The notes under the pieces were generated by a model. The model was given only the letters and a program-made list of their open reading frames with translations, did no database searches and was not told the origin of the DNA. Shown in pieces: positions 27,813-56,873 of a stretch of 64,000 nucleotides of DNA (positions within the stretch are counted from its first letter, which is position 1; every line of letters begins with the position of its first letter). Origin of the DNA: Alphaproteobacteria bacterium. Its GTDB lineage: Bacteria > Pseudomonadota > Alphaproteobacteria > UBA828. The stretch is taken from positions 416,001 through 480,000 of the forward strand of contig CBDCRW010000004.1 of assembly GCA_965221125.1 (NCBI GenBank), read 5' to 3'. Position numbers and translations under genes: made by a program.

Positions 27813-28394
27813 ATGGACCCAACGTCTCCGCACCCTTCGGGCGAAGCCGCCGACGGTGGCAGGTCCGGCGCGCCGGCTCTCTTCGATGCGGTGCTGGCGC
27901 CCAACCGCTCGCTCGGGCGCGCCGGCTTCGTTGCGGTCATGGCCGGCGTCATCGTGGTGAGCGTCGGCCTCGGCACCTACTTCCTGCTCCAGGGCGCGTG
28001 GCCGGTGTTCGGCTTCTTCGGCCTCGACATCCTGCTGCTCTATCTCGCCTTCCGGCTGAGCTACCGCTCGGGCCGCCTGCGGGAGACCATACGGGTCACC
28101 GCCGACGAGGTCGTCGTCCGCCGCATCGCGCCCAACGGGCGCGTGACGGAGTGGCGCTTCAACCCCTACTGGCTTCGCGTCGCCCTCGCCGAGCCGGTGG
28201 AGCACGCAAGCCAGATCACGCTCACCTCGCACGGACGTTCCATCGTCGTCGGCCACTTCCTCGCGCCGGAAGAGCGGGCGAGCCTGGTGAAGGCGCTGCG
28301 TGACGCGCTCGGCGAGGCCAACCGGCGCTACGCCGGCGCTCCGCTGGAGCAAGGCGCGCCGGAAGGAGACGCGGCAGCGGCCCGGCGCAGTTAG
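27813..28394 (+). CDS. DUF2244 family membrane protein
   Basis: PNRSL, GAWPVFGFFGLD, FNPYW, GHFLAPEERASL. Confidence 0.88.
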   Translation: MDPTSPHPSGEAADGGRSGAPALFDAVLAPNRSLGRAGFVAVMAGVIVVSVGLGTYFLLQGAWPVFGFFGLDILLLYLAFRLSYRSGRLRETIRVTADEVVVRRIAPNGRVTEWRFNPYWLRVALAEPVEHASQITLTSHGRSIVVGHFLAPEERASLVKALRDALGEANRRYAGAPLEQGAPEGDAAAARRS

Positions 28395-28406
28395 AGCGTT
28401 TCCGTC

Positions 28407-28418
28407 CTACACGGAAAC
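28407..28418 (+). repeat. attL core (12-bp direct repeat CTACACGGAAAC)
   Basis: Identical to 56718-56729; preceded by AGAGCGTTTCCGT, the left arm of the rebuilt palindrome. Confidence 0.85.
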
Positions 28419-28537
28419 ACGCACCTTCGGTGCTAAGCAGCTGATTCGATTGCGATGATCTTCCATTTCTATTGCCACCGGGCGCGGAATTCAAGCCGAT
28501 TCCGCACTCCGCTGCAACAGATCGGAGACGCGCAATC

Positions 28538-29665
28538 ATGCCAACCATCCGCCTCACCCAGCGCAGAGTCGACGCCCTTCGTCCCCGCCGCAAGGTGCGC
28601 GACATCCGGGACGCCGAGCTGAAGGGGTACGGCGTCCGGGTCATGCCCTCCGGCACCCGGCGCTACTTCATCCACAGCCAGCACAGGGGCAAACGAGTTT
28701 GGAAGATCATAGGCGACGCGGCGGCGATCGCCGAGCCCGAGGCGCGGGTCAGGGCCAGGTCGATGCTCGCCGCGTTGCGCGACGGCCGGGAGCCCGATGC
28801 GGCGGACCCCGGCGGCACCCTCTTCGAGACGGTCGCCGAGGAGGTCTTCGACCGCTACGGCCGCCGCTGGAAGCCGCGCACCCTGGACGTAAACCGGGCC
28901 TACCTCCGCCGGCAGATATTGCCCTTCTTCGCGGGCAAGCCCATCGGAGAGATAACCAAGGAGGACGTGCGGGCCTGGTTCCGCTCTCTTCACGCGACGC
29001 CCGCCGCCGCGAACCGCTCGGCACCGATCCTCTCGGTCATCATGCAGCAGGCCGAGGTCTGGGGATACCGCCCGGAGGACAGCAACCCCTGCGCCGGGAT
29101 CCGCCGCTACCGACAGGGACGGTCCGAGCGCTTCCTCACCCCCGAGGAGTATCGCCGCCTCGCCGCAGTGCTGGGCCGGCACGAGGCCGACCGCCCCCTG
29201 CACGTGGCCGCCCTGCGTCTGCTGCTGCTCACCGGGTGCCGCAAGTCGGAGATACTGACCCTTCAATGGCGCTCCTACCGGGAGGGGCGGCTCTATCTGC
29301 CCGACAGCAAAGTCGGCCCACGCACGGTCTGGCTGTGCGAGGCGGCGCGCGATGTTCTCGATAGCATGCCCCGATCCTCCGGATGGATCTTCCCGGTCGC
29401 CGGTCGGCGCACCCCGTGGATGTGGCTGGATTACTTCTGGCGCGGCGTGAGGGAGGAAGCCGGGCTGCAGGATGTCCGCCTGCACGACACCAGACATTCC
29501 TACGCCAGCATGGCACTGCTCTCCGGCGAGAGCGTGCGCACCGTCGGCCGCCTGCTCGGTCACGAGAAGGCGTCGACCACGCTGAAATACGCTCACCTGT
29601 CCGACGCCACGGTCCGCGACGCAGTCGAGACCCTGTCTCCCGTCCTGTCGGGGAACCGGCCATGA
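28538..29665 (+). CDS. Tyrosine recombinase/integrase 1 (with N-terminal arm-binding domain)
   Basis: N-terminal RDAELKGYGVRVMPSG; catalytic TGCRKSE, DSK, LHDTRH, LGH, KYAH. Confidence 0.93.
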   Translation: MPTIRLTQRRVDALRPRRKVRDIRDAELKGYGVRVMPSGTRRYFIHSQHRGKRVWKIIGDAAAIAEPEARVRARSMLAALRDGREPDAADPGGTLFETVAEEVFDRYGRRWKPRTLDVNRAYLRRQILPFFAGKPIGEITKEDVRAWFRSLHATPAAANRSAPILSVIMQQAEVWGYRPEDSNPCAGIRRYRQGRSERFLTPEEYRRLAAVLGRHEADRPLHVAALRLLLLTGCRKSEILTLQWRSYREGRLYLPDSKVGPRTVWLCEAARDVLDSMPRSSGWIFPVAGRRTPWMWLDYFWRGVREEAGLQDVRLHDTRHSYASMALLSGESVRTVGRLLGHEKASTTLKYAHLSDATVRDAVETLSPVLSGNRP

Positions 29666-30849
29666 AGGGGCGGAGGGTCCGGCTGACGGACGCGGGCGTC
29701 GGCAAGTTGAAGCCGCACACGACGGAATACGCGGTCTGGGACAGCGAGGTGCCCGGCCTCGGCGTGCGGGTACGCCCGTCCGGGCATCGCAGCTTCGTCT
29801 GGCACGGGCGCGTCCAGGGAGAGCCGGTCAGGGCGACCCTCGGCCCGGCCGCGCTCATGACCGTCGAGGACGCCCGGAAGGAAGCCCTGGCGCTCCGCTT
29901 GGGAACCGCCCCGCACAAGGCGGAAGGACGTTTCGGCGCTCCCCTGTTCCGCGACTTCGTCCAGAACGAGTGGATGCCGGCGTACCGCGGTCGCTGCGCC
30001 CCGTCGTCCTGCCGGTTCGCCAATCGTGTGCTTGAACGGCAGTTGATCCCCGCCTTCGGCCAACTCCCGCTGGACGCCATCCGGCGGATCGGCGTCGAAC
30101 GCTGGTTCGACGCCTACAGCCGTACCGCGCCGGGCGGAGCAAACAAGGCGCTCGAGATCCTCGGCCAAATCATGAACGCCGCCCTCGCCGCCGGCCATGT
30201 CGGGACCGCTCCCGTGAAGGGCATCGCGAAGAACCCCCGCCCGAAACTCACCCGGTTCCTCTCCGCCGAAGAGATCGAAAGGCTTCACCGCGTCCTTGAT
30301 CGGCTGGTCGGGGAGCGGCCCTCCCGCCGGCAGCAGGCCGACGTCATCCGGCTGCTCCTGCTCACCGGCTGCCGGGTGGGCGAGATCCTCAAGCTCCAAT
30401 GGCCGGAGGTCGACGGCGACCACCTCAATCTCGCCGACACCAAGACCGGGCCGCGCAGGGTCTGGCTGAGCCAGGCCGCGCAGGCCATCCTTGCCCGCCA
30501 GCCGCGTGCCGCAAGCCTCTACGTGTTCCCCTCCCCAAGGCATCCTGACAAGCCACTTTCACACGCACTTCACCTCTGGCGCCGGGCGCGGAAGGAAGCC
30601 GGGCTCGACGACGTTCGCCTGCACGATCTCAGGCATACCGTTGCCAGCCAGGCCGTCGCCCGGGGCGTTCCGCTCTCCACCGTCGCGCGCATGCTCGGCC
30701 ACGCCGACCCCACAATGACCCTGCGATACGCCCATGTCGGCGACCGCGATCTGCAGGCCGCCGCCGAGCGCATCGGAAAGTCCATCGGGGCCGCAATGGC
30801 GGGTGGCGAGGCGCCAACAGCACCATCAGTCCATAGGGTGCACGGTTAG
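29662..30849 (+). CDS. Tyrosine recombinase/integrase 2 (with N-terminal arm-binding domain)
   Basis: ATGA overlap with integrase 1; WDSEVPGLGVRVRPSG; catalytic TGCRVGE, DTK, LHDLRH, LGH, RYAH. Confidence 0.93.
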   Translation: MKGRRVRLTDAGVGKLKPHTTEYAVWDSEVPGLGVRVRPSGHRSFVWHGRVQGEPVRATLGPAALMTVEDARKEALALRLGTAPHKAEGRFGAPLFRDFVQNEWMPAYRGRCAPSSCRFANRVLERQLIPAFGQLPLDAIRRIGVERWFDAYSRTAPGGANKALEILGQIMNAALAAGHVGTAPVKGIAKNPRPKLTRFLSAEEIERLHRVLDRLVGERPSRRQQADVIRLLLLTGCRVGEILKLQWPEVDGDHLNLADTKTGPRRVWLSQAAQAILARQPRAASLYVFPSPRHPDKPLSHALHLWRRARKEAGLDDVRLHDLRHTVASQAVARGVPLSTVARMLGHADPTMTLRYAHVGDRDLQAAAERIGKSIGAAMAGGEAPTAPSVHRVHG

Positions 30850-30880
30850 CAGGCGGGAAATCAGGGTCTCTTCCCAACGT

Positions 30881-30910
30881 GACCCCGGAGGCTGCCATTG
30901 TTCCGGGGTC
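30881..30910. terminator. Strong hairpin downstream of the integrase pair
   Basis: GACCCCGGA (30881-30889) pairs perfectly with TCCGGGGTC (30902-30910); no U-tract. Confidence 0.45.
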
Positions 30911-30936
30911 CCCCAGCTCAGCTTCTCGCAAGCACC

Positions 30937-30966
30937 TTGACCGCCGCCTGATCCCGACTCTACGCT
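30937..30966 (+). promoter_or_regulatory. Candidate sigma70 promoter
   Basis: TTGACC-N18-TACGCT; the predicted start site (~30972-30974) coincides with the 5' end of a long stem. Confidence 0.55.
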
Positions 30967-30973
30967 TACCCCC

Positions 30974-31126: not shown

Positions 31127-32114
31127 TGCAAGGGAGCAAAGATTCATGAACAAGACTATGCTGGCGGTCACCCTCGGCGGTCTCCTTACTCTTTCGGCGT
31201 GTGGTGGCAGCGGTGGCAGCGGTGGCAGCAATACACAACCCGTCACGTCCCTGCCGCCCGCCAATACTCCGACGTTCAACGAAACGCTTGCAGCCGATCC
31301 GACCGCGAACCGAAGTGCCGTAACGCGAGCGGCCACGTCGCTGCCTGCATTCGGGAGTGTCACGCAATCCACAAGCCATAACGTGGCTGGGATATCATCC
31401 GACGCTGCGAGCACCACATTCGATGGGCAGAGACTGATCCTGCGGATTCAGCGCGATGACGCCAGCGCCCTCACCCTGGATACAGCCTCCGACACGCTCG
31501 AGAGTGACGCCCTCGACTCTCTTATTCCCGGGCATGGCGGACGCGGCTGGATTCAGTTGGATGCTAACGCGGCGGGCGCGACGTTAGCCTACACGGGCGT
31601 TTCCTGGTCTAACAGCGATCCCACCGATTACCTGGCGGGCGGCTATTGGCTGCATGCCGCCGGGGACGTCCTCAACGGTTCGGTCACAGGTGTAGAGGTT
31701 GGTGCCTTCGTCGATGGCCCCGAGCTTGATATCGGCAATCCGCCGACCATGCCGATGCAGGGCACTGCCAGCTACAACGGGCTTGCAGAGGGTGTCTATG
31801 CTGGCCGGTATGGCAGCATTGTTCCGGGACAGACCTTGTCGGAAGGGAGCACGGAGACTGGAGTTTGGAGTTCGACCATCGGACTCGCTGCCGACTTCGG
31901 TACCGGCACGATCTCGGGCTGCATCGGGTGTCAGGCTCCCGTCTATGTGACCGGTGTGTACCAAGATGCCGTAATGGGGCTCGGCGCCAATCGGTACCAT
32001 CGGAGCCTGTCCCGATGACGACGAATCGGGTGTCGTTGCCCTTGCACGCTCAGCGTGCTCACGGGGTCTTGCCGGAAGGCGCGCCCCAATCCTTCGAGAG
32101 GAAAGGGCAACGAC

Positions 32115-33158
32115 ATGGCTGTCTATATCGGGCTGGATGTATCGCTGGCAAGCACGACAATCTGCGTGATCGGCGACAAGGGCAAGATCGTGACCGAGGC
32201 TCAGGTCGCCAGCACGCCTGACGCGTTGGTTGCGTTCATGGGCAAGCTGGAGCACGAGATCGCCGTGATCGGTCTTGAGGCCGGTCCCCTGTCCCACTGG
32301 TTGCACAAGGGGCTGACCGACGCCGGCTTCGAGGCCGTCCTTATGGAGACCCGGCGGGTGAAGGCGGCGCTGAAGGCGATGCCGATCAAGACGGATCGCC
32401 GGGATGCCGAGGGCATCGCACGGCTCTTGCAGATGGGCTGGTTCAGGCCGGTGCACTGCAAGTCGGTATCGTCGCAGGAGATGCGCGCACTGCTGACCTC
32501 GCGCAGGTCCGTGAAGGGCGCGCTCACCGATATGGAACTCTCGCTGCGCGGCGTGTTGCGCAACTTTGGCCTGAAGCTGGGCCAGGTCTCGAAGGGCCGC
32601 TGGGAGGCCCGCGTCCGGGAGTTGATCGCAGGCAACGCGATGCTGGAGGCCGCCGCCGAACCGATCCTGCGCGCGCGGGTGGCTCTGCGCCGCGAGCTGG
32701 CCGGCCTGGAGAAGCTGGTCCGCGATCTGGCCAGGGAGGATCCGGTATGCCGGCTGCTGATGACCATGCCCGGCGTAGGCGCGGTCGTGGCCCTGACCTT
32801 CAAATCGGCGATTGACGATCCCGGGCGGTTCCGGAGATCGAAGGATGTCGGCCCCTGGGTGGGACTGACGCCGGGCCGGGACCAATCCGGCGAGCGAGAT
32901 ATTGTCGGCGGCATCACGAAGTGCGGCGACGCAGGTCTGCGTACCGCGCTCTATCAGGCCGCCACGGTGATGCTGAACGGCACCGCCGGGCCGAACTGGC
33001 TGAAGGCCTGGGCGCTTCGTCTGGCGAAGCTCCGTGGCAAGAAGCGTGCGACCGTCGCCCTGGCCCGGCGCATCGGCGTGGTACTTCACCGGATGTGGCG
33101 GGACGGCACCGAGTTCCGCTTCACGCGCGAGGAGGCGATGGCGCTCCAGACGGCATAG
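32115..33158 (+). CDS. IS110 family transposase/recombinase (DEDD RuvC-like + Tnp20 domain)
   Basis: YIGLDVS, IGLEAG, KTDRRDAEGIA, MPGVG, GLTPGRDQSGE (catalytic Ser), GITKCG, VALARR. Confidence 0.96.
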   Translation: MAVYIGLDVSLASTTICVIGDKGKIVTEAQVASTPDALVAFMGKLEHEIAVIGLEAGPLSHWLHKGLTDAGFEAVLMETRRVKAALKAMPIKTDRRDAEGIARLLQMGWFRPVHCKSVSSQEMRALLTSRRSVKGALTDMELSLRGVLRNFGLKLGQVSKGRWEARVRELIAGNAMLEAAAEPILRARVALRRELAGLEKLVRDLAREDPVCRLLMTMPGVGAVVALTFKSAIDDPGRFRRSKDVGPWVGLTPGRDQSGERDIVGGITKCGDAGLRTALYQAATVMLNGTAGPNWLKAWALRLAKLRGKKRATVALARRIGVVLHRMWRDGTEFRFTREEAMALQTA

Positions 33159-33229
33159 GCGCGGCTGCATCCCACCGGCAATCGGAAGCGAGAGGAGGAA
33201 AGAGCCGCGCCTGAAGGTGGCGATCCACC

Positions 33230-33410
33230 GGTGTCCCCTCGCCGGGACGCGGTTCCCGTTGATGCACGCGCTGCGTCTTGTCGGCCGAACCGTTTCATCG
33301 CGTTCGAGCACGCGACCAAGATCGGCACTCGGGAATCGTTTGGACCAGGCATGACGTTGGCAGCCGCTGCGCTGACCACGGACGGAAGCGAGAGCCTGGC
33401 GACGGACACA
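33230..33410 (+). ncRNA. Candidate bridge/seek RNA of the IS110 element (ends approximate)
   Basis: Two stem-bounded internal loops; one contains matches to the target (33269-33280, 33315-33322), the other to the donor junction (33348-33352, 33382-33388). Confidence 0.7.
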
Positions 33411-34053: not shown

Positions 34054-35058
34054 GGGTCTATCCCCGCGCGGGCGGGGGAGCCGCAATCCGCCCCGTATTC
34101 CACGCGCCCCAGGAGGGTCTATCCCCGCGCGGGCGGGGGAGCCGGATCGGGGGCGGACAAGAGCCTGGCGATCAAGGGTCTATCCCCGCGCGGGCGGGGG
34201 AGCCACGTAGTTTCGGAACTCGCCGTCGCCAGTGGCGGGTCTATCCCCGCGCGGGCGGGGGAGCCTTCCTGCAGCTCTTCGGCTCGGCGGCCGAGTGGGG
34301 TCTATCCCCGCGCGGGCGGGGGAGCCTCCGCCAGCTCAGCCACCAGGCTATACGCCTCGGGTCTATCCCCGCGCGGGCGGGGGAGCCACGATGTACGGGC
34401 GCTGGCGGGCATATCGCCAGGGTCTATCCCCGCGCGGGCGGGGGAGCCGTCTCGCCGGGGATGTAAGGTTCGCCGCGATAGGGTCTATCCCCGCGCGGGC
34501 GGGGGAGCCAAATCACTACGAAACAGCCTCACCGTAATGTTGGGTCTATCCCCGCGCGGGCGGGGGAGCCACGACCGGGGCGGTGGTCCCGACATCGGTG
34601 GCGGGTCTATCCCCGCGCGGGCGGGGGAGCCATCGGACGATACAGGAGCAGGCCGTTCTTCTCGGGTCTATCCCCGCGCGGGCGGGGGAGCCGCGTAGGC
34701 CACACTGATGTTGGTCAGTGGGCGGGGTCTATCCCCGCGCGGGCGGGGGAGCCAATTCGTGGTGCGAACCCTGGTGTCTGATCTGGGGTCTATCCCCGCG
34801 CGGGCGGGGGAGCCGGTTGAGACCGGCGTTCGCGAATGCATCCGCCGGGTCTATCCCCGCGCGGGCGGGGGAGCCGCCTCCTTACCAAGATCAGCACCAA
34901 TTGGATTGGGTCTATCCCCGCGCGGGCGGGGGAGCCGTAAGCAAATCCGTCCACTTCAACGTAAGCCGGGGTCTATCCCCGCGCGGGCGGGGGAGCCAGG
35001 TCGATGGCGTACTCAAGACCGCCCTCGCCGGGTCTATCCCCGCGCGGGCGGGGGAGCC
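34054..35058 (-). CRISPR. Type I-E CRISPR array, 17 repeats and 16 spacers
   Basis: 29-bp repeat GGGTCTATCCCCGCGCGGGCGGGGGAGCC (+ strand) at an exact 61-bp period with 32-bp unique spacers; leader on the cas2 side implies minus-strand transcription. Confidence 0.98.
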
Positions 35059-35100
35059 TCTAGCGATCAACACTTTGATGTATTTACGATGTCAAAGAGC
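35059..35100 (-). promoter_or_regulatory. CRISPR leader with IHF-like site
   Basis: AT-rich; minus strand reads GCTCTTTGACATCGTAAATACATCAAAGTGTTGATCGCTAGA and contains ATCAA-N4-TTG; overlaps the cas2 stop codon. Confidence 0.7.
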
Positions 35101-35415
35101 AGTGGGCGATGTACGCGAATCCCCTTGCCGTTTTACGAGAAGGACACCGTCTGCGTCCACGATCTCTTTGGGAGGCGCGCCGAGCGTCCGTATGCGGAGA
35201 TTTCCGACGGCTTGCGTGTCCCTCCATACCAGGACGATCGATCCTGTGCGCAGTGCCGACCACCATGCCGACAGCACGTCCCACACCCGTGTCCGCACGC
35301 CCGCCGACAGGTCGGGCGCCACGTAGACTCCGGGTGCAACTTCAAGCATGACGGAGGTCAGAAAGCCGCGATAGCGAGGTTCCACGTTACGGGTGACGAC
35401 CATTGCCATGGGCAT
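35092..35415 (-). CDS. cas2: Type I-E CRISPR-associated Cas2
   Basis: VVTRNVEPRYRGFL...MLEVAPGVYV...VRTRVW...DADGVLL. Confidence 0.93.
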   Translation of the reverse strand: MPMAMVVTRNVEPRYRGFLTSVMLEVAPGVYVAPDLSAGVRTRVWDVLSAWWSALRTGSIVLVWRDTQAVGNLRIRTLGAPPKEIVDADGVLLVKRQGDSRTSPTAL

Positions 35416-35422
35416 CGTCCGA

Positions 35423-36307
35423 TCACTCCTCCCCGGAGGGGTCCTCGAAAAGAGATTTTATTCGCTCGATCATCGCTGGGATCACATGTTCGCGTGCCAA
35501 TGTTTCCCCCGTCAGCCGGCGGGCAAGCCGCTCGATGTTTTCATCCGGGCGTTCAGTGATCCGCTTGGCGGCACGGAAAGCGGAGGGAATGGTAATGCTG
35601 TCGCGATGAAGGTCAGCGATGTCCAGAACGAACGACTGCCCCGGATCCTCGTGGATGAAGCCGAGTTGCGGGATCGTCGCGGTAGCGGCGACGGCGATGG
35701 CGGCGGCGCCCTCGACCGCGCTCGATGCGTGGTTGAGGGCCTGATTGGGAAAGTCCGCCGCTCCCGGGTCAGCGCGATCATAGCGGCGTCCACGCCACTC
35801 GATCCGGGCTCGCTGGGCGTGCAAGCGATAACTCTCCTTCATTCGCGCGCCCTCGATGCCGCGCAGAACGTCCAGCGAGCGATGCGGCAATATTTCGCCC
35901 AGTCGCCAGGCATACATGCGACGGGCGACGGCAATACGTTCGGCGTCGTCGGCCCATAGCCGCGCTTGCCGCCGCGCCAGGCCGGAGCGGTCGGGAATCA
36001 GCGGCGGGGCGGTGTAGAGACGAACCCCATCCTCTCCCACCGCCGCGAGCCCGGTGCGCGCGTAGGCAAGTAGACGCAACGCGTCATGGCTGACCGTGGA
36101 GCCGGGGCCGAGCAAAATCATCGATACCCCCTGAAGCGGGATCGCGTAATCCCCGGGCCCGAGCGCGTCCGCCGCGGTCGCTTGCCCTTGCAGGAAGGCG
36201 AGCGTGCCGTCTCGGGCTGTCAACGCGCCGCGCGCAAGATAGAGCAACCCGGCCCGATCCCTGTGCGGGACCTTGGCGCTGTCGAGTCCAAGCCGGCCCT
36301 TCAGCAT
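35423..36307 (-). CDS. cas1: Type I-E CRISPR-associated Cas1
   Basis: LLGPGSTVSHDAL, LRGIEGARMK, NQALN, LGFIH, SFVLDIADL. Confidence 0.96.
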   Translation of the reverse strand: MLKGRLGLDSAKVPHRDRAGLLYLARGALTARDGTLAFLQGQATAADALGPGDYAIPLQGVSMILLGPGSTVSHDALRLLAYARTGLAAVGEDGVRLYTAPPLIPDRSGLARRQARLWADDAERIAVARRMYAWRLGEILPHRSLDVLRGIEGARMKESYRLHAQRARIEWRGRRYDRADPGAADFPNQALNHASSAVEGAAAIAVAATATIPQLGFIHEDPGQSFVLDIADLHRDSITIPSAFRAAKRITERPDENIERLARRLTGETLAREHVIPAMIERIKSLFEDPSGEE

Positions 36308-37087
36308 CTACCGCACCGGAACCGGGCGGCCGGGCGGGCGCAGCAGCAGCATGCCGTAGCCATAGGCTCGATGCCGCCCAACGCCCCGCATCAGCAGCGC
36401 GGAGAACGCCGTCGGATCAGCCACGACGAGAACGCCGTGCACGGTCGCGTCCGGCCCCTCAGAATCGTGATTCTCTCGTGCGACCCGCTGGCGTCGGAAA
36501 CGAACAAGACGAGTTGCTGAACGGTCGAGCGTGGCCGTGGGGGTCAGCCGTTCGGCCAGCCAGTCGAGATAGACCTCCTGCCGTGTCCGGCCCTCGTTGC
36601 TCATGCCGTCCGGCGCTTCGGGGTGGCCGCGCAAGGCCTCTACCAGAAACGCATCGACCTCGCGGCCAGCGCGCACCCGCTCTCTCGAGCCGTTCAGGTC
36701 GCGCCGCAGGCGTCGGATCGGTCGAGCCCGCAGATCGAAGCCCAACCGTTGCCCCGCGCGCCAGTCCGCCGGCATCAGCTTGCTCTCCAGCCCTTCGAGG
36801 CGCAGGACCTTCAAGTGTTCCGGCAGGGCCTGGACGTCCGCCGCGGCGCACAAGGCTTCCGCGTCCATTGCCGAGTACGCGTAGAGATTGCCGGCCCGTC
36901 TGCGGGGCGGGACGAGAAACCTGAAGCAGGGGAGGACTCCCGGTCCCCAGACTTCGGTCACGAGATGGTGCAGGGCGCGGCCTTCGTCATACACGGCGTC
37001 TTTCGATCCGGTCCAACCGCGTTCGCCGGCCCATCGACCTAACTGGCCGGTGTCGACGGGAGCGCGGACCAGATGGAACGCCGTCAT
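36308..37087 (-). CDS. cas6e: Type I-E Cas6e/Cse3
   Basis: C-terminal G-loop GVGRHRAYGYGML; position between cas5 and cas1. Confidence 0.92.
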   Translation of the reverse strand: MTAFHLVRAPVDTGQLGRWAGERGWTGSKDAVYDEGRALHHLVTEVWGPGVLPCFRFLVPPRRRAGNLYAYSAMDAEALCAAADVQALPEHLKVLRLEGLESKLMPADWRAGQRLGFDLRARPIRRLRRDLNGSRERVRAGREVDAFLVEALRGHPEAPDGMSNEGRTRQEVYLDWLAERLTPTATLDRSATRLVRFRRQRVARENHDSEGPDATVHGVLVVADPTAFSALLMRGVGRHRAYGYGMLLLRPPGRPVPVR

Positions 37088-41042: not shown

Positions 41043-41185
41043 CCGGGGGTCAGTTTCGTTCACCGTGCTGCGAGTGACAAACTGCCGGCTGCTTGCGCGG
41101 CAATCCTGATCGCATCGACAAAATACCAGAACCAACGGTTTCGGAACAAACAAGAAACACTGTCCTTGGGCGGGGACAGTAGGTC

Positions 41186-43735: not shown

Positions 43736-43868
43736 CTCGCTTCATTCAGCCACCTTGTTGCTACTCGTAGAACTGCCATCTCGCGCATGAATTCGCGTTC
43801 AGGAGCCACTCCAATGCACGATCGGATTTGGCCGCGATTTATTCCACGGGCCGCTATGATCTTGCGTC

Positions 43869-49346: not shown

Positions 49347-49501
49347 CCGATCCTGCCCGCACCGTCTGCATCGACGAGGGTTCTCAGGACCTGTCGCTCG
49401 TGTCTTGCACTCTCTGCCGTGAAGGAGGCCGGCGAACATATTGAAAGCGCCTTCTTTCCGATCGCCGGGTCGCCGCATGCGCAGCGCCGCCGGCGAGATG
49501 C

Positions 49502-50526
49502 TCACGACTTGATCCAGCCCGCCCGGTGCCTGGCCGCGCCGCCAAAGAAGGCAAGGCACGCCCGCGCCAGCGATCTCCGCCTTCCCGCCGTCGTGAGCAC
49601 GGCATGGAAGCTCCTGCCTGTCTCGACGAAGCCGCCCGCCTGCATCACCAGAGTGCCGGCCTCCACGTGCCGTCCGATCAGATGACGCCAACCGAGCACG
49701 AGGCCGCGGCCGGCAACGGCTGCGTCCAGCGCCTGGGCGTGGCTCTCGACGACTTCGTACCGGGGGTCCGGGGGCGGACGCCCCGCGGCCTCGAACCAGC
49801 GCTCCCAGGACGCTCCGCCCTCGTCAGGCCCTGCGAGATCGAGAAGGGTCAGCCCCTTCCAGCCCGCCGCAGGTCCATTCAGAACCTGCGCATGAGCGGC
49901 GGCGTAGCCGGGAGAGCAGAAGGCGCCAACGGCTCCCCCGGCAACCGTCACGCGGTGCTGGGTGCGGCAGTCTCCGCGTCCCAGGTCAGCATCAGATCGG
50001 CGGCGGTCTCGGACGGCGCGGGCGCTGCTGCGTTTGTGTGGGCGAGAATGCGGATCCGGACGTGATCTCCAAGCGCCGCTTTCAGCGCCTCATAGCGCTG
50101 CATCGCGAAGAGTTGCGACAACTCGTCCGGACAGGCGATCGCCACTTCCGTCCCGTCCTCGCTGGAGTGTTCCGCAATCTCCGCGGCCCCGTCATGGAGA
50201 GCGTCGAGAGCCACAAGGACCGCCTTGTGAAAGCGCAGCCCCGCGTCGGTCAGGCTCACCCCGGTCCGGGAGCGCTCGAACAGCCGTGCCGAGAGCTGGT
50301 CCTCCAGGCGCGCAATGAGTCGGCTGATCGCCGACTGCGAGGTGCCGAGCTCCCGCGCCGCATGGGAGAAGCTGCCGTGTCGCGCCGCGCTCTCGAAGGC
50401 GATCAGGGCGCTCATGGAGGGAAGCCGGTAGGGACTGCGATCGCTCAAGGGCGCGCGGGCGCGGCCGGAGCGCACGTTCCCGTCCCCGCGTTGCGCCACA
50501 TGGCGCGGCTCTCCGTCGTTGGCCAT
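49502..50526 (-). pseudogene. LysR-family (GcvA-like) regulator, split by a frameshift near 49950
   Basis: HTH LPSMSALIAFESAARHGSFSHAARELGTSQSAIS in 49948-50526; the substrate-binding half (WERWFEAAG, ALDAAVAGRGLVLGW) is in another frame at 49502-49951. Confidence 0.78.
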
Positions 50527-50609
50527 GCCTCCCTCCCCGGCACGTATGGCCGCGTGCGCCCGGTCTCCGCAGCCGCCAGGCGCTCAGGCCGCGAGAACCC
50601 CGCCGGGCC

Positions 50610-51055
50610 TCACTCCGCCTGCGCCGGCGCCACGCGCTTCGTCAGCATCACCACGTTGCGCCCGTCCTGCCGCCGGCAAGCCACCGTGTCCATCGTCTTC
50701 TGCACGAGATAGATGCCGAGACCGCCCTTGGCGCGATCCTGCAGTGCGGCGCGATATCCGGCGCCGGCGCCCGCAGCGGGTCGAACGCCCTGCCGTCGTC
50801 CGCGATCTCGATCGCCAGCGCTCCGGCCTCAAGGCGGAGGACGAGATCGATCCGATGCTCCCGGTCGTCGTCGTAGCCGTAGCCGATCGTGTTGGTCACC
50901 AGCTCGTCAGCCGCCAGATTGACCTCAAAGGCAATCTGCTTCGCCATCCCGTGCTCTGCACGGAACGCGCCGACGTTCTCGGCGGCGACGGCGACATTCC
51001 GCAGATCGTTGACCGGCGAGAGCTCGAGAGCGTCGCCGGTACCGGCGGCAGCCAT
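50610..51055 (-). pseudogene. RsbW-like anti-sigma factor/ATP-binding protein, frameshifted near 50750
   Basis: NLAADELVTNTIGYG and DDGRAFDP in one frame; DRAKGGLGIYLVQKTMD...GRNVVML continues in a different frame to TGA at 50610. Confidence 0.78.
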
Positions 51056-51114
51056 TTCCCCCGGGCCCGCCTGATGCAGCACGCGCCCGCCGCAGCTTGC
51101 GTCTCCGGCGGCCG

Positions 51115-51396
51115 CTACCGCGTAGCCGGCTCGACAATGATGCGCCCGCGGCCGCGCCTGACGAAGTAACCGCCACGCGGGATAGCGAGCGTGCCCTGCT
51201 GAACCAGCGGCCAGAGAGTATCGACGATCAGGGTCGCATTCTTGTCCGGCGCCGACCCCGCGGTCCCCGGCTGGGCCGCGAGCCATTCCAGGAAGGCCCT
51301 GTCGGCGATATCTCTGCCGATGGATTTTCGCAGCGCATTCAGTTTGCGCGCCTGCCCCCTGGTCAGGCCGCTCTCGTCAATCTCGATACCGGGCAC
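51115..51396 (-). CDS. Small hypothetical protein
   Basis: GGAGGGAG RBS, GTG start, 93 aa of protein-like composition. Confidence 0.6.
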   Translation of the reverse strand: MPGIEIDESGLTRGQARKLNALRKSIGRDIADRAFLEWLAAQPGTAGSAPDKNATLIVDTLWPLVQQGTLAIPRGGYFVRRGRGRIIVEPATR

Positions 51397-51856
51397 GGCA
51401 ATCGCTCCCTCCGATGTCGCTCAAGGGCGAGCGTTATAGCAGATCGCGCCGACAGGCATCTCCAGCGGTTTCACGGTCACGCAACCCGGTGTCGCTGCCA
51501 CGGGATGGGGTGCAGGAAGAAGACGGGCCACGCGCATGAGCGGGGCCGTCCGCATGTTCTCGCGCCCAGGCGGGCGTGGCGCACCGGCGTACGCGGCGCA
51601 CCGGCGTATGCGGCGCGAGCCATGTCCGCCATGCCGGTTTCGTGCTCGACCCGGCTCCCGGTGCCGCCGAGGACCGGGCCGTTCCCCCGGCGCACGGCCT
51701 CCCCGTCTCCCGCCGTATTTCTCTTTCTGCGCCGCCTTCACTTCGGCACGCCGCCAGGAGTCGGAGGCTGGCCGAAACGAGGGCGCGGCGGGTCGCGTCC
51801 CGGGAGAGGGGGGCGTCCCCGCCGTCTCCACCAACCTGCCAACGGGAGGCGGCACC

Positions 51857-52174
51857 ATGCGGACATCCGGGACAGTTCATCGAAGCGCACAAACGTTTCT
51901 GACCCATGTGTTCGGGCGCGGTCTCGACGACGAGCGCTATGTCGTCGAGAGATACGAGTCCGATTTCGAGGGCCAGATCCGGCCCTGGCGGCCGGGCAAG
52001 GGATCGAAGGACGCGCGCAAGGCAGCGCGGAAGGTGATGAGCCTTCGCGCCGTGCAACGGCTCCGGCCGGAGCGGAACGAGATCATAATTGCCACCGGCG
52101 TCGAGCTTGCCGGCGGCGTTCAGTACTACGGCGAGCATGCCATCTGGCCCCATATGTCGCGGCGGCATCGGTGA
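51857..52174 (+). CDS. Small hypothetical protein
   Basis: GGGAGG RBS before ATG51857; 105 aa of protein-like composition. Confidence 0.5.
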   Translation: MRTSGTVHRSAQTFLTHVFGRGLDDERYVVERYESDFEGQIRPWRPGKGSKDARKAARKVMSLRAVQRLRPERNEIIIATGVELAGGVQYYGEHAIWPHMSRRHR

Positions 52175-52286
52175 TCGAAGGATTGGCCGGGGCGTCCCTA
52201 CCGGGCGCTCCGGCCCTCGTCTTGCGCCGGAATACCGGTGGAAAGGCGCGCTCCTTGATCGTCGTCAACACGAAGGATCGCAGATC

Positions 52287-53093
52287 ATGCCCTACGCCGA
52301 CATCGAGAGGCGGAGAGCGCTCCAGCGCGAACGTCACCGGCGCCGTATCGTCGAGCGGGCCGCTCTCGGGCTCTGCACCCGATGTGGGATCCGCGCCGTG
52401 GCGCCCGGCCGGCGGCAGTGCGAGCCCTGCCGCAGAAAGGCGCGCGCCGCCGAGCGTGCGCGCTATGCTGCCGGCAAAGCCAGGGGCGAGCTCTACGGCG
52501 GCCGCCGGGTGGCAACCCGCAGGCGCGACAGCCGTGAGCGGGGCAGAGAGCGCCATCGCGCCCGGCGCGCGGCTGGAACGTGCACGATGTGCGGCCGGAT
52601 GCCACCCATGGTGGGCGCCGCCGTCTGCGAGGGTTGCAGGTCCGACCGTCGCGCCCGCGAGCGTGAGCGCTACGCCCGCCGCAGGGCCGAGGGCCGTTGC
52701 GTCCGCTGCAACGACGCGGCGCCGGCTGGGTCCTCCCGCTGCCGGCAGTGTGCGGCCATGGAGGCGTCGCGGCCGAAAGGGCGGAAGAATGCCCAAGACC
52801 GCAAGCGGTACGCGCGCCGTCGCGCCCGGAAGCTCTGCTCACGATGCGGGGCCTGGGCGGGTGCCGCCAGCACGTGCGACTCCTGTTCGCGGCAAGCCCG
52901 CGTGCGCTCGCCCGAGTATCGAGGAGTGCCGTTGTCCGGGCCCCTCTTCACCGTCGTCGAGATCGCGACCGGTCGAGAGTTGGACACGTTCGAGACCGAG
53001 GCCGAGGCGGCGGCCGCGCTGGCGTTTGCCGGCCTCGGCCCCGGCGATGTCGAGATAGTCTCGGACAACACGGCCGCACTGACCGCGTGGTAG
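52287..53093 (+). CDS. Arg-rich protein with four CxxC-x(9-11)-CxxC repeats
   Basis: CTRC..CEPC, CTMC..CEGC, CVRC..CRQC, CSRC..CDSC, each preceded by a basic helix. Confidence 0.7.
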   Translation: MPYADIERRRALQRERHRRRIVERAALGLCTRCGIRAVAPGRRQCEPCRRKARAAERARYAAGKARGELYGGRRVATRRRDSRERGRERHRARRAAGTCTMCGRMPPMVGAAVCEGCRSDRRARERERYARRRAEGRCVRCNDAAPAGSSRCRQCAAMEASRPKGRKNAQDRKRYARRRARKLCSRCGAWAGAASTCDSCSRQARVRSPEYRGVPLSGPLFTVVEIATGRELDTFETEAEAAAALAFAGLGPGDVEIVSDNTAALTAW

Positions 53094-53587
53094 CCAGCGG
53101 CGATGCGTCCGCCGCGCCGCGCGCCATCCCTCAGCGCCTTGCGAGACCCTGGCCGGTGACGCCCGGAGCCCGACCGCAGCCCACGGCGGACACGCGCTCC
53201 AAACTCGACGGAATGCGCGGGAGCCGGCCAAAACAGGGATCACCGGCTCCCGCGCTCTCCTCGCGGAGACCCTCATGGGCAATCGGAGGTTACATCCCGG
53301 TGCGGACCTCCGGCAAGGCGCCGGCCGCCCCCGTGCCGGCCGCGCCGGCGATCCGCTTCCCGGAACTTGCGAGGCGGGTTAATGACACCACCCGGCGCGC
53401 CGGAACCGGCGCCGCCTGTCCGGTGAGTGCGTCGGCGCCACCGGCAAGCCCGAGCGGAACGTCACCGTGCAGGTCACGGGCAGGTCGCGGGCAGCCACCC
53501 GCGATCGCCGGCCTCCCCTGACGCGCCGCCGGTTCGGCAATTTCAGGGCAGGGGGTCCCGGCGCCACGGCAACCGGCACCGCCGGCT

Positions 53588-54922
53588 TCATGTCCACCGC
53601 CACAGGAGGTCCTTCGAGATCTGCCTCGCGATCCTGTCGCGCTGGCGCTCCAGGCCGTTGTGCGCCGACCCGAACTGCCCCCCCTCCAGCCGGATCACCC
53701 TGCCGATCCGCTTCATCAGGCGGTGGGTCTCTTCCTTCTTCTTCTCGTATTCCTCGCTGCCAAGCCCCATGACCTCGATCACGTAGCGCACCTTGTCGCT
53801 GCCGTCGGTGGAGCCGCCCGGGCGGCTGACGGTGAGAAGGCCGTCCGGATGACAACGGCCGTCGCGCACCCTTATCGGGAAGAGCGGCCTCTCAAGCTCG
53901 ACCCGGACGACACCGCCGAGCGCCTCCCGCAGCTCCTTGCCGCTTCGCAGATCCTCGACCAGTCGTGCAAGCGACAGGAGCGCCTGGCGCTCGTAGTCAG
54001 AGTCGACCGGGATCGGCAACTCCGGCGCGGCAATCGGCTCCGCGTAGGCCATGCGGCACTCCCATCCGTGCATGTCTGCGGACTGCGCCAGCGCGCCCAG
54101 GAAGAGATAGGGCCCCTCCACCCTGTTGTTGTGGATGAGCCGGGAGACCACGGGAGACGTCACCCTCACATGGCCGGCGCCCCCGGTCCTGCCGTTGATG
54201 TCGTGGCCCTCCACATCGTGCGCGACCCAGCACAGGTAGCCGCAGGGCGGGGGATCTTTCGGCCAATGCCGCGCGCGCTCGTCCAGCCTTTCCCGGAACT
54301 CACCCGAGTGCCAGCTCGCGGGGGCCGTGCACAGCACCTCCGACGCCGGAACCCCCGGCGCGACGGGGAACGCAACTGCGGCGCGTCTGAGTTCCGCGAG
54401 CCAGTCCTCCGATGACGGAAACCGCTCCACACCGGCCAGTGTGTGCAGCCGCGCCTCCCGGATGAAGCACTTGAGCATGTAGGCCACGACCGGGACCGAC
54501 CGGCCCGTCCCGCTCCAGGGCTTGTGTTCCAGGTCGCGTTCTGCCGAAGCCTCGACGTCCCGCTCGTGCGAGAGCGGATTGAAGAAGAACCGGGAGGCGC
54601 CTTGCAAGTGTTGCAGGCGGAAGACGCAGTTCCCGGCATGCGGCACGGAAGCGTCGGGAAGGTTGCCGAGACGCATGCTGCGCCGTCCCCGGCCGGGCAC
54701 GATGACAGGCTGCTCCAACCCATCGGGCAGACAATCGCACAACATCCAGCAATCCGCGTCGCAGAGGGCCCTGATCACGGCGTCGTGGAGCTTTCGCGCC
54801 GCCGGGTCCTCCTTCCGGCGCCTTACTCTTGCGTCCTTGACCTTGCGCAGGGCGTATTCCTCGAGAGACTCAAGCCAACGGACGTGCTCCCGGCTGAACG
54901 CCCTTATGACCTCGAGAGCCAT
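53588..54922 (-). CDS. Hypothetical protein with N-terminal Cys/His motif and C-terminal PD-(D/E)xK-like motif (DUF1173-like)
   Basis: LCDC...HAGNC at the N-terminus; HPDGLL...YVIEVMG...EYEKKK at the C-terminus; GGAGGGAGG RBS. Confidence 0.6.
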   Translation of the reverse strand: MALEVIRAFSREHVRWLESLEEYALRKVKDARVRRRKEDPAARKLHDAVIRALCDADCWMLCDCLPDGLEQPVIVPGRGRRSMRLGNLPDASVPHAGNCVFRLQHLQGASRFFFNPLSHERDVEASAERDLEHKPWSGTGRSVPVVAYMLKCFIREARLHTLAGVERFPSSEDWLAELRRAAVAFPVAPGVPASEVLCTAPASWHSGEFRERLDERARHWPKDPPPCGYLCWVAHDVEGHDINGRTGGAGHVRVTSPVVSRLIHNNRVEGPYLFLGALAQSADMHGWECRMAYAEPIAAPELPIPVDSDYERQALLSLARLVEDLRSGKELREALGGVVRVELERPLFPIRVRDGRCHPDGLLTVSRPGGSTDGSDKVRYVIEVMGLGSEEYEKKKEETHRLMKRIGRVIRLEGGQFGSAHNGLERQRDRIARQISKDLLWRWT

Positions 54923-55230
54923 GATCCTCCCTCCGATGCCCCCCGCTGCACTTCACCGACAGGAGCGCCGGGACGCCGGCGCCCGAAACGATCGCGGGAA
55001 GGGTGCCAGCGCCTGGCCCCGGCCCGCTCGATCCAACGCGGCGAGCGCTCCAGCCATTCGTCGACCAGGTGAATCCCGTCGGCCCCGGCCCTCGCCTCGG
55101 TGATCAGGGGACGCCATTGGAAGTGTCCCCGTCTTCTCAGCCGAAACCATCGACAGCACAAGCCCTCTCGGGTCGACCTGGCCCTCTCACCGGACCGCCG
55201 CACTTGTTCGTCCGATCTGCTTGCCTGCAA

Positions 55231-55746
55231 TCAGAACAGCTCCTTCTGACCGGAGTCGCCGACCCTTTTCCTTGGGCGCGCCGGCTTCTGCGGTTTCTTC
55301 GGCTCCTGCGGTTTCTGTGCCGGCGCCGGCGCCGTGCGCATATTCTGCATGAAAGCGGCGGCGATGATTGCCGCCCGCTCGTCGCCGAACACTTGCCGCA
55401 GGAGCGCCTCCGCGTCGCTGCTCCGGCCCTGCCGCACCATCGTCTCAAGCCGCGCCTTCAGCAGCGCGCCGAGGCCGTCCGTGACCTGCGAAGGCGCGTC
55501 GATGTCCGAGCGCAGGCTCCGCGCATGCTCGCTCACGGCCCGAGACACGGACTTCTGCTGTTTCTCGTCGAGCACCAGCCGGCGATGTTTCCGCGGCAAG
55601 GGATCCACCGTCAGCGCGCAATGGACCACCCAGGCCGACACCGACATTCCGGCCTCGTCCGCCCCCGACTCGACGTCGGCCCACTCCTCGTCGGTCGCGG
55701 AAATCGTCTGCGAGGTCCCCGCCCTGCGCACGCGCCGCCTTTTCAT
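55231..55746 (-). CDS. Ribbon-helix-helix (MobC/NikA-like) protein 3
   Basis: QTISATDEEWADVESGADEAGMSVSAWVV. Confidence 0.68.
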   Translation of the reverse strand: MKRRRVRRAGTSQTISATDEEWADVESGADEAGMSVSAWVVHCALTVDPLPRKHRRLVLDEKQQKSVSRAVSEHARSLRSDIDAPSQVTDGLGALLKARLETMVRQGRSSDAEALLRQVFGDERAAIIAAAFMQNMRTAPAPAQKPQEPKKPQKPARPRKRVGDSGQKELF

Positions 55747-56069
55747 GGCCCCCGCTCTTCTTCGCAGAGCAGCAGAAAGCGCACCACTTCATGGATCGCC
55801 AGGGTCGTCTTCCCGCCGTCCTGCGCATCGACAACGATGCTCTTCGACCGGGCGAGAACGCGGCTGTCCTCGTAGAGGCGACGCTGCGCGTCTTCGGCGA
55901 GCACCAGCGGATGACCAAGCGGTTCCGGAGGAGCGCTCGCGCTCGCAACCCGGCGGCAGCACAGAATGACCAGGCGCGAGAGCGATATCCCCGCCCTCTT
56001 GGCCCGCCGCCGCATCTTCTCCCGCGCCTCTGGCGAGCAGTAGATGCAGCGCTTCTTCGCCAGGATCAC
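55743..56069 (-). CDS. Ribbon-helix-helix (MobC/NikA-like) protein 2
   Basis: RCIYCSPEAREKMRRRAKRAGISLSRLVI; ATGA overlap with the next gene. Confidence 0.65.
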   Translation of the reverse strand: MILAKKRCIYCSPEAREKMRRRAKRAGISLSRLVILCCRRVASASAPPEPLGHPLVLAEDAQRRLYEDSRVLARSKSIVVDAQDGGKTTLAIHEVVRFLLLCEEERGP

Positions 56070-56082
56070 GGCACTTTCCGCT

Positions 56083-56415
56083 TCATCCCAGATCGCCCTC
56101 GCCCTCGATCCAGGCGTCCACCGCGCCTACCGCCCTCCGCCACAGCTCTTCGCCCATCTCGCCGTCGTTCACGAGACGCAGCCTTTGCAGTTCTTCGAGG
56201 ATCAACACCGCCTTTGCCGCTCGCTGCAGCACCGGCGAGGGCAGAGCGGCATCGGTCGTGGCGGCCTGCGCCTTGCGGTCGAGGCAGCACCTGATGACGT
56301 AGTCGGAGTTCGACAATCCCGCCGCTTGTGCGCCCTCGTTGATCTCGGCCCACTCGGCATCGGTTGCACCGACCCAGCGCTGCTTCCGCTTTTCGCCCTT
56401 TTGTCTCGCCGGCAT
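56083..56415 (-). CDS. Ribbon-helix-helix (MobC/NikA-like) protein 1
   Basis: RWVGATDAEWAEINEGAQAAGLSNSDYVI. Confidence 0.68.
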   Translation of the reverse strand: MPARQKGEKRKQRWVGATDAEWAEINEGAQAAGLSNSDYVIRCCLDRKAQAATTDAALPSPVLQRAAKAVLILEELQRLRLVNDGEMGEELWRRAVGAVDAWIEGEGDLG

Positions 56416-56536
56416 CGGCCCGCCCGCGTCCCTATGGTGGATATCCGACTATATCCGCAAATGAACAGATAAAACCATACGTCCTGCATATCGACCTTCA
56501 GCCGTCATCCCACAAGCCGCAGATTACTGCGCAGAT

Positions 56537-56568
56537 GATAGACACATCAACACCCGAGTGTCACTATC
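56537..56568 (-). other. Candidate oriT/nic site
   Basis: Minus strand GGTGTTGATGTGTCT^ATC resembles the R388 TrwC nic (GGTGCGTATTGTCT^ATAG); lies in an imperfect hairpin in AT-richer DNA upstream of the RHH genes. Confidence 0.45.
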
Positions 56569-56717
56569 GCAACAAGAAAGACCTCTCCTGCCATGGAAAT
56601 ATGACCGTTACTTCCATAGTTGACTTCAGTATAACCATATGATGTAACACGCATGCAACGGATGACCATCGCATAACGAGTCTAACCACCGAACCACCGA
56701 ATCGTCGGTATTGTTTT

Positions 56718-56729
56718 CTACACGGAAAC
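56718..56729 (+). repeat. attR core (12-bp direct repeat CTACACGGAAAC)
   Basis: Identical to 28407-28418; followed by GCTCTGA, which completes the right arm of the rebuilt palindrome. Confidence 0.85.
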
Positions 56730-56873
56730 GCTCTGACTCTTTGTCGCTCACGGCAGCCGGTCTTCGACCGGCGCCTCCGCGTCGCGCGGCCACGCGCGCA
56801 GGGGCGCGCGATGTGCGCCGCATTCGCGGCCTATCGCGCGTCCGTCAGAGTCGGACGCGCTCCGACGCCGCTT

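Follow-up and report, generated by a model that had tools for sequence, protein, structure and literature searches.

A tandem-integrase mobilizable island in a dispersed palindromic repeat: recurrent insertion at one hairpin position, likely through a short shared core

What brings a large mobilizable island into a short palindrome between two convergent genes, and is such a palindrome its regular target? The question arises in a stretch of 64,000 nt of alphaproteobacterial DNA (lineage UBA828; assembly GCA_965221125.1, contig CBDCRW010000004.1, positions 416,001 to 480,000), referred to as the window. The original prediction, which concerned window positions 28393-56736, proposed a family of integrative and mobilizable elements (IMEs) using a dispersed palindromic repeat as attachment site (attB). 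We find the lineage of this island at the same palindrome position in five species, and elements of the same family outside the repeat. The interpretation is therefore partly supported, being right for the window lineage and too broad for the family.

The genome under study (G000) is 4.58 Mb long and 92% complete. It was compared with 20 other species of its genus, one genome per species, among them G004, G005, G006, G008, G011, G013, G015, G018 and G020, and with 23 genomes from nine other genera of the family. A wider sample comprised 200 other genomes across the class, searched with the first integrase (Int1) at E <= 1e-90. In the names below, C and a number denote a contig, L and a number a locus fetched from these genomes.

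The two borders of the island consist of the following features.

27732 to 28394, plus strand: DUF2244 host gene, left flank (Pfam PF10003, E 1.2e-48)
28393 to 28405, no strand: left arm of the split palindrome (AGAGCGTTTCCGT), which resembles a repetitive extragenic palindromic (REP) sequence; host DNA
28407 to 28418: attL copy of the 12-bp direct repeat, with the 10-bp family core ACACGGAAAC at 28409-28418
28419 to 28537, plus strand: left arm of the element, with the conserved end A-CGCACCTTCGGTGCTAA and a 5-3-5 palindrome (GCACC-TTC-GGTGC) at 28421-28433
56416 to 56717: right arm of the element, ending in ...GTTTTCT, of which the TTTCT before the core is conserved in related elements; probably the attP arm and/or a predicted origin of transfer (oriT) region
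56718 to 56729: attR copy of the direct repeat
56722 to 56873: right arm of the palindrome (ACGGAAACGCTCT, 56722-56734) and the remainder of a composite host repeat of about 150 bp, with a second hairpin at its end
56874 to 57359, minus strand: DUF1636 host gene, right flank, convergent with DUF2244 (Pfam PF07845)

The island sits between these two convergent genes. The window has exactly two copies of the 12-bp direct repeat CTACACGGAAAC (28407-28418 and 56718-56729), and none of 100 shuffled sequences gave two matches. The outer flanks read AGAGCGTTTCCGT-CCTAC at 28393-28410 on the left and ACGGAAACGCTCT at 56722-56734 on the right; the bases outside the repeat copies are AGAGCGTTTCCGT-C and GCTCT, respectively. 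Deleting 28,311 bp restores AGAGCGTTTCCGT-CCTAC-ACGGAAACGCTCT, a perfect inverted repeat with arms of 13 bp around a 5-nt loop, whose left arm overlaps the TAG stop of DUF2244 (28392-28394). ARAGORN found no tRNA gene in the window. The earlier description of the borders, namely two copies of the direct repeat, a perfect palindrome over the stop codon and no tRNA at either end, agrees with all of this, and the string given for the circle junction follows from both ends as read, the circle itself being a prediction. No 8-mer is shared between the two element ends as arm-type repeats would be, the only likeness being the 7-nt TTCGGTG. The segment 28419-56729 is probably a 28.3-kb IME, in which neither VirB4 nor a coupling protein was found.

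The palindrome is a dispersed repeat of the genome. The 13-mer GAGCGTTTCCGTC occurs 16 times. We counted 66 hairpins when both 10-nt arm cores were allowed one mismatch at the fixed spacing, and likewise 66 with a single 27-nt pattern and up to two mismatches in all, for which a reversed-pattern control gave 0. With 12-nt arms within two mismatches the count is 77, the attL junction itself included. Some copies start with GTAGAGCG and most with nTAGAGCG; the loops are mostly 5 nt long and variable in sequence. The rebuilt site agrees with this family in its 13-bp arms, 5-nt loop and fixed 17-nt spacing. The repeat was found in 18 of the 20 other species of the genus (1-51 copies) and in none of the 23 genomes of the nine other genera, and is thus a genus-specific dispersed repeat among the genomes searched. 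That the palindrome is dispersed had been proposed, and the genome-wide count of 66-77 copies, depending on definition, bears it out.

The palindrome is commonly one end of a composite of about 150 bp, of which the right flank of the island (56735-56873) is an example. Hairpin 1 is followed by TTGTCGCTCACGGCAGCCGG with a GC-rich hairpin and then by a second hairpin, GCGCGTCCGT..ACGGACGCGC, about 110 nt further on in the copies printed. The middle motif has 107 copies, and the right arm of the palindrome lies at most 60 nt away in 84 of them. Rfam matched no family in the window or in four loci around the ACACGTGCTC site described below.

The core ACACGGAAAC is concentrated in the repeat. In a by-eye count from printed flanks, 17 of its 20 sites in the genome, the two att copies included, are inside repeat-like hairpins. 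About 15 repeat-embedded cores are unoccupied candidates, in keeping with the many potential landing sites that had been suggested. A second exact copy of the 12-mer CTACACGGAAAC is found at C5:459895.

Is the repeat entered repeatedly? The pattern ACACG-N6-CGCACCTNCGGT detected 14 left ends in 8 of the 21 genomes of the genus, and its reversed control none. They are distributed over five cores.

Core ACACGGAAAC: 8 left ends, in the genome under study, G018, G005 and G013 (five)
Core ACACGTGCTC: 3 left ends, in G015, G011 and G004
Core ACACGATGCC: 1 left end, in G011
Core ACACGAGCGC: 1 left end, in G020
Core ACACGGTCTG: 1 left end, in G004

A one-base core variant in G008, ACTCGGAAAC, brings the ACACG-type elements to 15. 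Nine of the 15, from five species, sit at the identical position of the palindrome, with the left arm and loop of the repeat directly before the core, and the outer flanks of these nine are all different. The right ends were read in G018 and G005, where they enter the right arm of the repeat and its composite extension; the G013 and G008 copies are known by their left ends. A further right end, on G011:C3, likewise enters the repeat, and its left end was not found. The rebuilt site of G018 is a perfect palindrome with 14-bp arms, and that of G005 has two arm mismatches. The G018 flanks are contiguous in the genome under study, with neither repeat nor island between them.

The sister elements, with Int1 90-94% identical to that of the window, use other cores, ACACGTGCTC in three elements and ACACGATGCC in one, which is nested in another element. 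Their 10-bp cores have ACACG in common and differ in the next five bases. In the Int1 tree, the elements at least 90% identical form a poorly resolved group with three target types interleaved. The paralogs at 56-64% Int1 identity sit in coding-looking DNA. The proposal that the dispersed palindrome serves as attB thus stands for the window lineage, with nine elements in five species at one position, and fails as a property of the family, which also uses other cores and coding-looking DNA.

The element on G011:C1, whose Int1 is 94% identical to that of the window, has no palindrome arms at either end. Its flanks form one continuous stretch of the genome under study, which lies within another family member's int1 gene and in which they overlap by 11 bp at C7:307053-307063. 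This exact empty site fixes the element ends at the direct repeat and places the palindrome arms outside the element. In G011 itself (L029/L057, G011:C1:614,725-654,620), one family member is nested within the int1 of another. Meanwhile, the ACACGTGCTC site, occupied by sister elements in G004, G011 and G015, is empty twice in the genome under study, on C4 near 31.7 kb (31,710) and near 639.8 kb. Both empty copies lie in multi-copy DNA resembling other mobile elements. The empty target reads CCATTGTGCC-ACACGTGCTC-C, upstream of a conserved small open reading frame (ORF) beginning MIFDIDTIEKRGQ. In G011, a left end (L045/L086) and a right end (L064) share the ACACGTGCTC core about 87 kb apart and may not belong to one element.

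By comparing both borders, we found the five variable bases to be the same at the two ends in all five elements read (those of the window, G018, G005, G011:C1 and C6 of the genome under study). Identical variable bases at both ends point to a homology-dependent exchange, as in lambda-type overlap regions. From these borders, the border repeat most likely follows the rule ACAC(C/G) plus five variable bases, identical in attP and target. It would reach 12 bp in the window because the loop of that repeat copy ends CT-AC, a chance match. The reading we favour, and consider likely from the compared sequences, is an integrase-mediated crossover in the 10-bp core, with the core of one lineage matching a dispersed repeat.

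Several observations weigh against this reading, or against the role that it gives to the repeat. Six of the 15 ACACG-type ends are outside the repeat, and none of the ACACC-type ends printed from related loci is in it. The best-fitting copy of the repeat, with a TTCAC loop (C4:542775), is unoccupied. Other insertions interrupt four of the five repeat-type copies in G013 (L085, L088, L089 and L090), either in int1 or immediately ahead of it. The nine insertions are kin and not independent, and some could share ancestry within a genome, though their flanks differ. An exact empty-site control exists only for the non-repeat insertion of G011:C1. No other species has an empty palindrome at the locus of the window, and at six loci of the genome under study that are orthologous to insertions of other species, five are without the repeat and the sixth (L090) has a degenerate hairpin. 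In Logan contigs from one sample (four runs), attL is bridged as integrated DNA, with no circle or empty-site joint and no loose end at 28406-28419, although contigs cannot reveal rare forms. Finally, where the cleavage falls, what Int1 and Int2 each do, and the oriT and helper are all inferred.

The missing empty sites are explained in part by the repeat itself. Of 19 loci fetched from relatives, 16 have the flanking genes together, with stop codons only about 10-25 nt apart in 14 of the 16, and neither palindrome nor island was seen between DUF2244 and DUF1636 in any of the 16. Judged from these alignable loci, the composite repeat appears to be a lineage-specific insertion, which the island would have entered afterwards. 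Since the composite repeat was itself inserted in a lineage-specific manner, other species cannot show an empty palindrome here, and palindrome-free relatives do not refute the idea. It had been suggested that relatives be examined for adjacent DUF2244 and DUF1636 with an intact palindrome; the genes were indeed adjacent in 16 loci and the palindrome was in none, which for the same reason we do not count as a refutation. The six loci in the genome under study are unusable as empty sites because the positions of the repeat are species-specific. In the closest relative (L010, G020:C41; 88% nt identity), different DNA follows DUF2244, and DUF1636 is not within 1.5 kb.

Four other explanations were considered. 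In the first, the integrases would recognise the palindrome as a structure, such as a hairpin or cruciform, and the repeat would be the true specific attB of the lineage. All nine repeat insertions do occupy the same hairpin position. The loop has TTC before the core in eight of the nine, and the resulting small inverted repeat GTTTC-ACACG-GAAAC resembles the attP sequence GTTTCT-ACACG-GAAAC. However, non-palindromic sites hold elements whose Int1 is 90-94% identical and whose cores differ in nothing but the five variable bases, the target types are interleaved on the Int1 tree, and the repeat copy of the window has a different loop, CCTAC. We regard structure recognition as improbable, though it survives better than the other three.

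In the second, the TrwC-type relaxase would catalyze insertion at a nic-like site beside the terminal 5-3-5 palindrome, and the integrases would be secondary. In all elements read, this small palindrome is 1-2 nt away from the core (GCACC-TTC-GGTGC, and GCACA-GAA-TGTGC in a distant genus), and its likeness to the oriT of R388 is one that we presume. In the circular form it would face the ribbon-helix-helix (RHH) genes, as an oriT does, and the elements come with long TrwC genes. TrwC of R388 can integrate DNA into an oriT copy, and site-specific integration by TrwC is reported in PMC3264647. Yet every family member read has two intact arm-domain integrases some 120 nt away from the junction, and the spacing from the small palindrome to the far core end is not conserved (12 nt here and 8 nt in G202). 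Insertion by the relaxase is very unlikely.

The palindrome halves could also be the terminal inverted repeats of the element, with the solo palindromes as derivatives or scars. Repeat and island are both missing in other species, here and at the G018 locus, where the two insertions are inseparable. This origin is nevertheless scarcely credible in view of the 94%-identical element that lacks palindrome arms and has a known exact empty site, of the 66 solo copies against one occupied copy in the genome under study, and of the ~150-bp composite with its own second hairpin in which solo copies typically lie. Equally hard to sustain is an ordinary island fixed to the 3' end of DUF2244 with the palindrome as an incidental feature, for although it abuts a gene stop codon like many islands, orthologous elements occupy eight other loci with unrelated flanks, none of the eight left flanks matches DUF2244, and the DUF2244 genes of relatives end differently, without the repeat.

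Under the favoured crossover in a shared core, the composite intergenic repeat of about 150 bp between two convergent genes would supply the target hairpin. The target itself would be the loop-proximal part of the right arm in one copy of the genus-specific REP-like hairpin. A tyrosine-recombinase crossover would then take place within the short core common to attP and target (ACACGGAAAC). We propose that the variable core bases act as an overlap region, in which the partners must match and which the protein would not read, and that Int1 and Int2 may act together as a hetero-oligomer. Because the core of the window lineage equals a sequence in many copies of the repeat, that lineage would have many landing sites, which it has used repeatedly. 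An oriT may lie within the right-end or attP region, and transfer would proceed through a type IV secretion system (T4SS) and a coupling protein supplied in trans.

The genes between the borders, identified mainly by Pfam, are as follows.

28538 to 29665, plus strand: int1, arm-domain tyrosine integrase, with the residues R, HxxR, H and Y present in the translation
About 29665 to 30849, plus strand: int2, second arm-domain tyrosine integrase, catalytic residues present, 39% identical to Int1
31964 to 33363, plus strand: IS110-family insertion sequence (IS), cargo, with a transposase ORF at 32055-33158 (PF01548 and PF02371)
34054 to 35058: CRISPR array of 17 repeats of 29 nt and 16 spacers
35092 to 43735, minus strand: type I-E cas operon with cas2 (35092-35415), cas1 (35423-36307), cas6e (36308-37111), cas5 (37084-~37800), cas7 (37803-38933), cse2 (38930-~39500), cse1 (39498-41153) and cas3 (41186-43735)
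43869 to 49346, plus strand: MOBF relaxase-helicase of 1825 aa, TrwC with AAA_30 and UvrD_C_2 (PF08751, E 4e-74)
49347 to 53500: variable accessory region shared only partly with the G011 element, with a LysR-type helix-turn-helix fragment (49948-50526, minus strand), a HATPase_c_2 anti-sigma-like gene (50648-51286, minus strand) and further ORFs
53588 to 54922, minus strand: DUF1173-like conserved backbone protein of 444 aa with an endonuclease-like C-terminus
55231 to 55746, 55743 to 56069 and 56083 to 56415, minus strand: three NikA/MobA-like RHH genes (PF21983)

Int1 and Int2 both carry an Arm-DNA-bind_3 domain, a SAM-like central domain and a Phage_integrase catalytic domain with R..HxxR..H..Y, the make-up of P4-type integrases. 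Together with the direct-repeat borders and the TrwC relaxase, these integrases give the island the marks of an IME. The type I-E CRISPR-Cas set is complete (cas3, cse1, cse2, cas7, cas5, cas6e, cas1, cas2 and array); cse1 is recognised solely by TIGR02547, at 55 bits and under the 70-bit cut-off, and Tandem Repeats Finder detected the array only in part. The three RHH genes score 25.3, 22.4 and 36.5 bits, of which only the last, for 56083-56415, exceeds the cut-off of 27, and their NCBIfam MobA match is weak. The predicted gene content of two integrases, a TrwC-like relaxase, three RHH ORFs and a full type I-E system is thus confirmed by Pfam and other profiles. The coupling protein family PF02534 has five matches in the genome, all outside the island, and VirB4 (PF03135) has none genome-wide, no search with other T4SS families having been made; within this range, the claim that the island has neither coupling protein nor VirB genes holds. 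Profiles, the direct repeat and these absences together support the prediction of an IME with tandem integrases and a MOBF relaxase.

A comparison with the elements of G018 (46.6 kb), G011 (about 40 kb) and G005 (about 42 kb) revealed three common parts at 77-92% nt identity. The first, 28393-30800, holds the left end, int1 and int2. The second, 43850-49330, is the relaxase, at 85-90% nt identity with G018, G011 and G005, and the third, 53500-56730, takes in the right end together with the RHH genes and the DUF1173-like gene. By this alignment, the segment with the IS110 and CRISPR-Cas is exchangeable cargo of the window copy.

The 444-aa backbone protein matched nothing in Pfam, NCBIfam or PHROG; a protein-atlas feature score of 0.97 places it near DUF1173/PF27227 clusters, which serves as a lead only. 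The C-terminal ~900 aa of the relaxase (window 46600-49346) matched no Pfam family. Long TrwC proteins of 1600-1830 aa recur in the genome under study, G004, G005, G011 and G013, in which TrwC counts are 10, 13, 23, 35 and 6, respectively. The IS110 matches an IS in the G013 locus L089 at 84% nt identity over 31964-33363. The IS that cuts the element in L089 is 84% identical to the one in the window, and the ORF inserted in L088 looks like a reverse transcriptase. The IS110-family transposase (32055-33158) was absent from the original prediction. The CRISPR spacers gave self-matches only in the genome under study, and a single 15-nt chance match among all fetched loci.

The integrases belong to a large family with a conserved layout. 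Int1 has 38 matches in the genome under study at E <= 1e-5, with at least nine tandem pairs within 400 bp. Of the 20 other species of the genus, 15 have the family at E <= 1e-100 (up to 35 matches in one genome, that of G011), and none of the 23 genomes of other genera does; two of the 200 further genomes across the class have it at E <= 1e-90. The first and second integrases of the pairs in the genome under study form separate clades, supported by values of 99 and 100 in the Shimodaira-Hasegawa-like approximate likelihood ratio test (SH-aLRT), and the order int1-int2 is conserved. In four paralogs of the genome under study, at 56-61% identity, int1 follows the left end CGCACCTTCGGTGCTAA at a distance of about 120 nt, and ACAC(C/G) and six bases stand before that end. 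Most of 28 related loci from other species have this end likewise ~120 nt upstream of int1, and one of the two distant genomes repeats the layout with ACACC, five bases, A and a 5-3-5 palindrome. Among 33 integrase matches of the genome under study, the window's is the only one with half-sites of the repeat within 400 nt upstream.

How does this compare with known systems? Described IMEs mostly enter tRNA genes or gene ends and carry a single integrase. The island resembles IMEs, as covered in the accessible part of a review (PMC5704250), in its integrases at one end, border repeat, relaxase with RHH genes, lack of mating-pore genes and variable cargo; it differs in the conserved integrase pair, the up to 35 Int1 matches per genome and the lineage in a dispersed repeat. 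Dispersed extragenic palindromes are targets of IS from five families according to the accessible part of PMC1525189, and ISPpu9 and ISPpu10 are described as REP-targeting in those of PMC12288879 and bioRxiv 10.64898/2026.03.19.712850. Elements of this kind (IS1397, ISKpn1, IS621, ISPpu9, ISPpu10, ISPa11 and ISPsy8) are alike in their fixed position in the palindrome and their many, mostly harmless sites. They measure 1-2 kb and have DDE/DEDD transposases, whereas the elements here measure 28-56 kb, with tyrosine integrases, a relaxase and a shared core. The repeat is like REP sequences and bacterial interspersed mosaic elements in its many dispersed copies and composite mosaic units, without the associated REP-associated tyrosine transposase (RAYT): the Y1 transposase profile PF01797 had no match in this 92% complete genome, and its control was positive in 6 of 14 genomes.

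Two recombinases each are found in Tn554 (TnpA/TnpB), in strand-biased circularizing integrative elements (IntA/IntB) and in XerC/XerD. The island is similar to these systems in its adjacent, diverged recombinases that are retained together, here in separate first and second clades. It is different in that both proteins are arm-domain, P4-like integrases and the element has a relaxase. Tn554 has no border repeats and one fixed site, whereas the island has border repeats and many sites. In Tn916 and CTnDOT, the variable coupling bases differ between the ends after integration. The island is like them in having a conserved short motif beside about five variable bases and one recombinase lineage with many targets, but its variable bases are identical at both ends. 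Filamentous prophages of Neisseria integrate in dispersed dRS3 repeats through an IS110/Piv-like recombinase. They too are larger elements in a dispersed short repeat, though phages and not tyrosine-integrase mobilizable islands. The literature searched, without subscription journals and supplements, yielded no report of a large integrase-borne mobilizable island in a dispersed palindrome or of tandem-integrase IMEs, and the words 'tandem' and 'palindrom' do not occur in the classification paper PMC8138268.

Dispersed palindromes, known as targets of small IS, would here serve an element of a new kind. Lying between convergent genes and available dozens of times over, such a repeat is a safe harbour, which would explain a high copy number without a tRNA gene, and such sites would let the island family move cargo such as a full CRISPR-Cas system. 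Near-identical integrases with cores that differ in five bases offer a natural experiment on target choice by tyrosine recombinases, and these differences could guide the design of retargetable integration tools. Island finders based on tRNA or gene-end sites would overlook such elements. More tentatively, we speculate that these islands may be homology-guided transposons. The integrase pair might read little beyond ACA(C/G) and its own arms, with landing set by a 5-7-base attP overlap. A rare mismatched event could rewrite this overlap, so that a lineage retargets, gains dozens of safe intergenic sites and multiplies where its overlap matches a repeat, and carries defence systems between sites and, through a helper, between cells. 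This extension is possible, and more doubtful than the core rule on which it builds.

Some further loci deserve description. A paralogous element of 56 kb (G000:C6:182,270-238,653) has a 10-bp repeat, ACACCGCCTA, and its rebuilt site reads ...GWHQDTAYCDIRPIVV, as if a PhyH-like dioxygenase gene were interrupted. The ACACC-type pairs L002/L037 (C7 of the genome under study and G006) and L048/L049 (G015 and G013) share flank and core across species, which points either to fixed gene-internal sites or to one inherited insertion. A candidate sixth element in the genome under study, at C7:523067, was rejected: an 11-bp repeat stands at 8.5 kb from it, yet no integrase lies in between, and we took the likeness for chance. 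A plasmid search gave three weak matches only.

In the sequencing data around attL, two loose ends, at 28114 and 28435, were set aside: both belong to a single 4.5-kb contig, unrelated apart from 18-20 bases in common. In runs X20 and X21, the 31-mers that start at 28408 and 28409 fall on either side of a unitig break. We rejected attP as the cause of this break, for a circle junction would break at 28406/28407 instead. A variant contig of X21 has 10 differences over 28583-28859, and the sample may hold a second copy or strain sharing the 30-mer at window 28408-28438.

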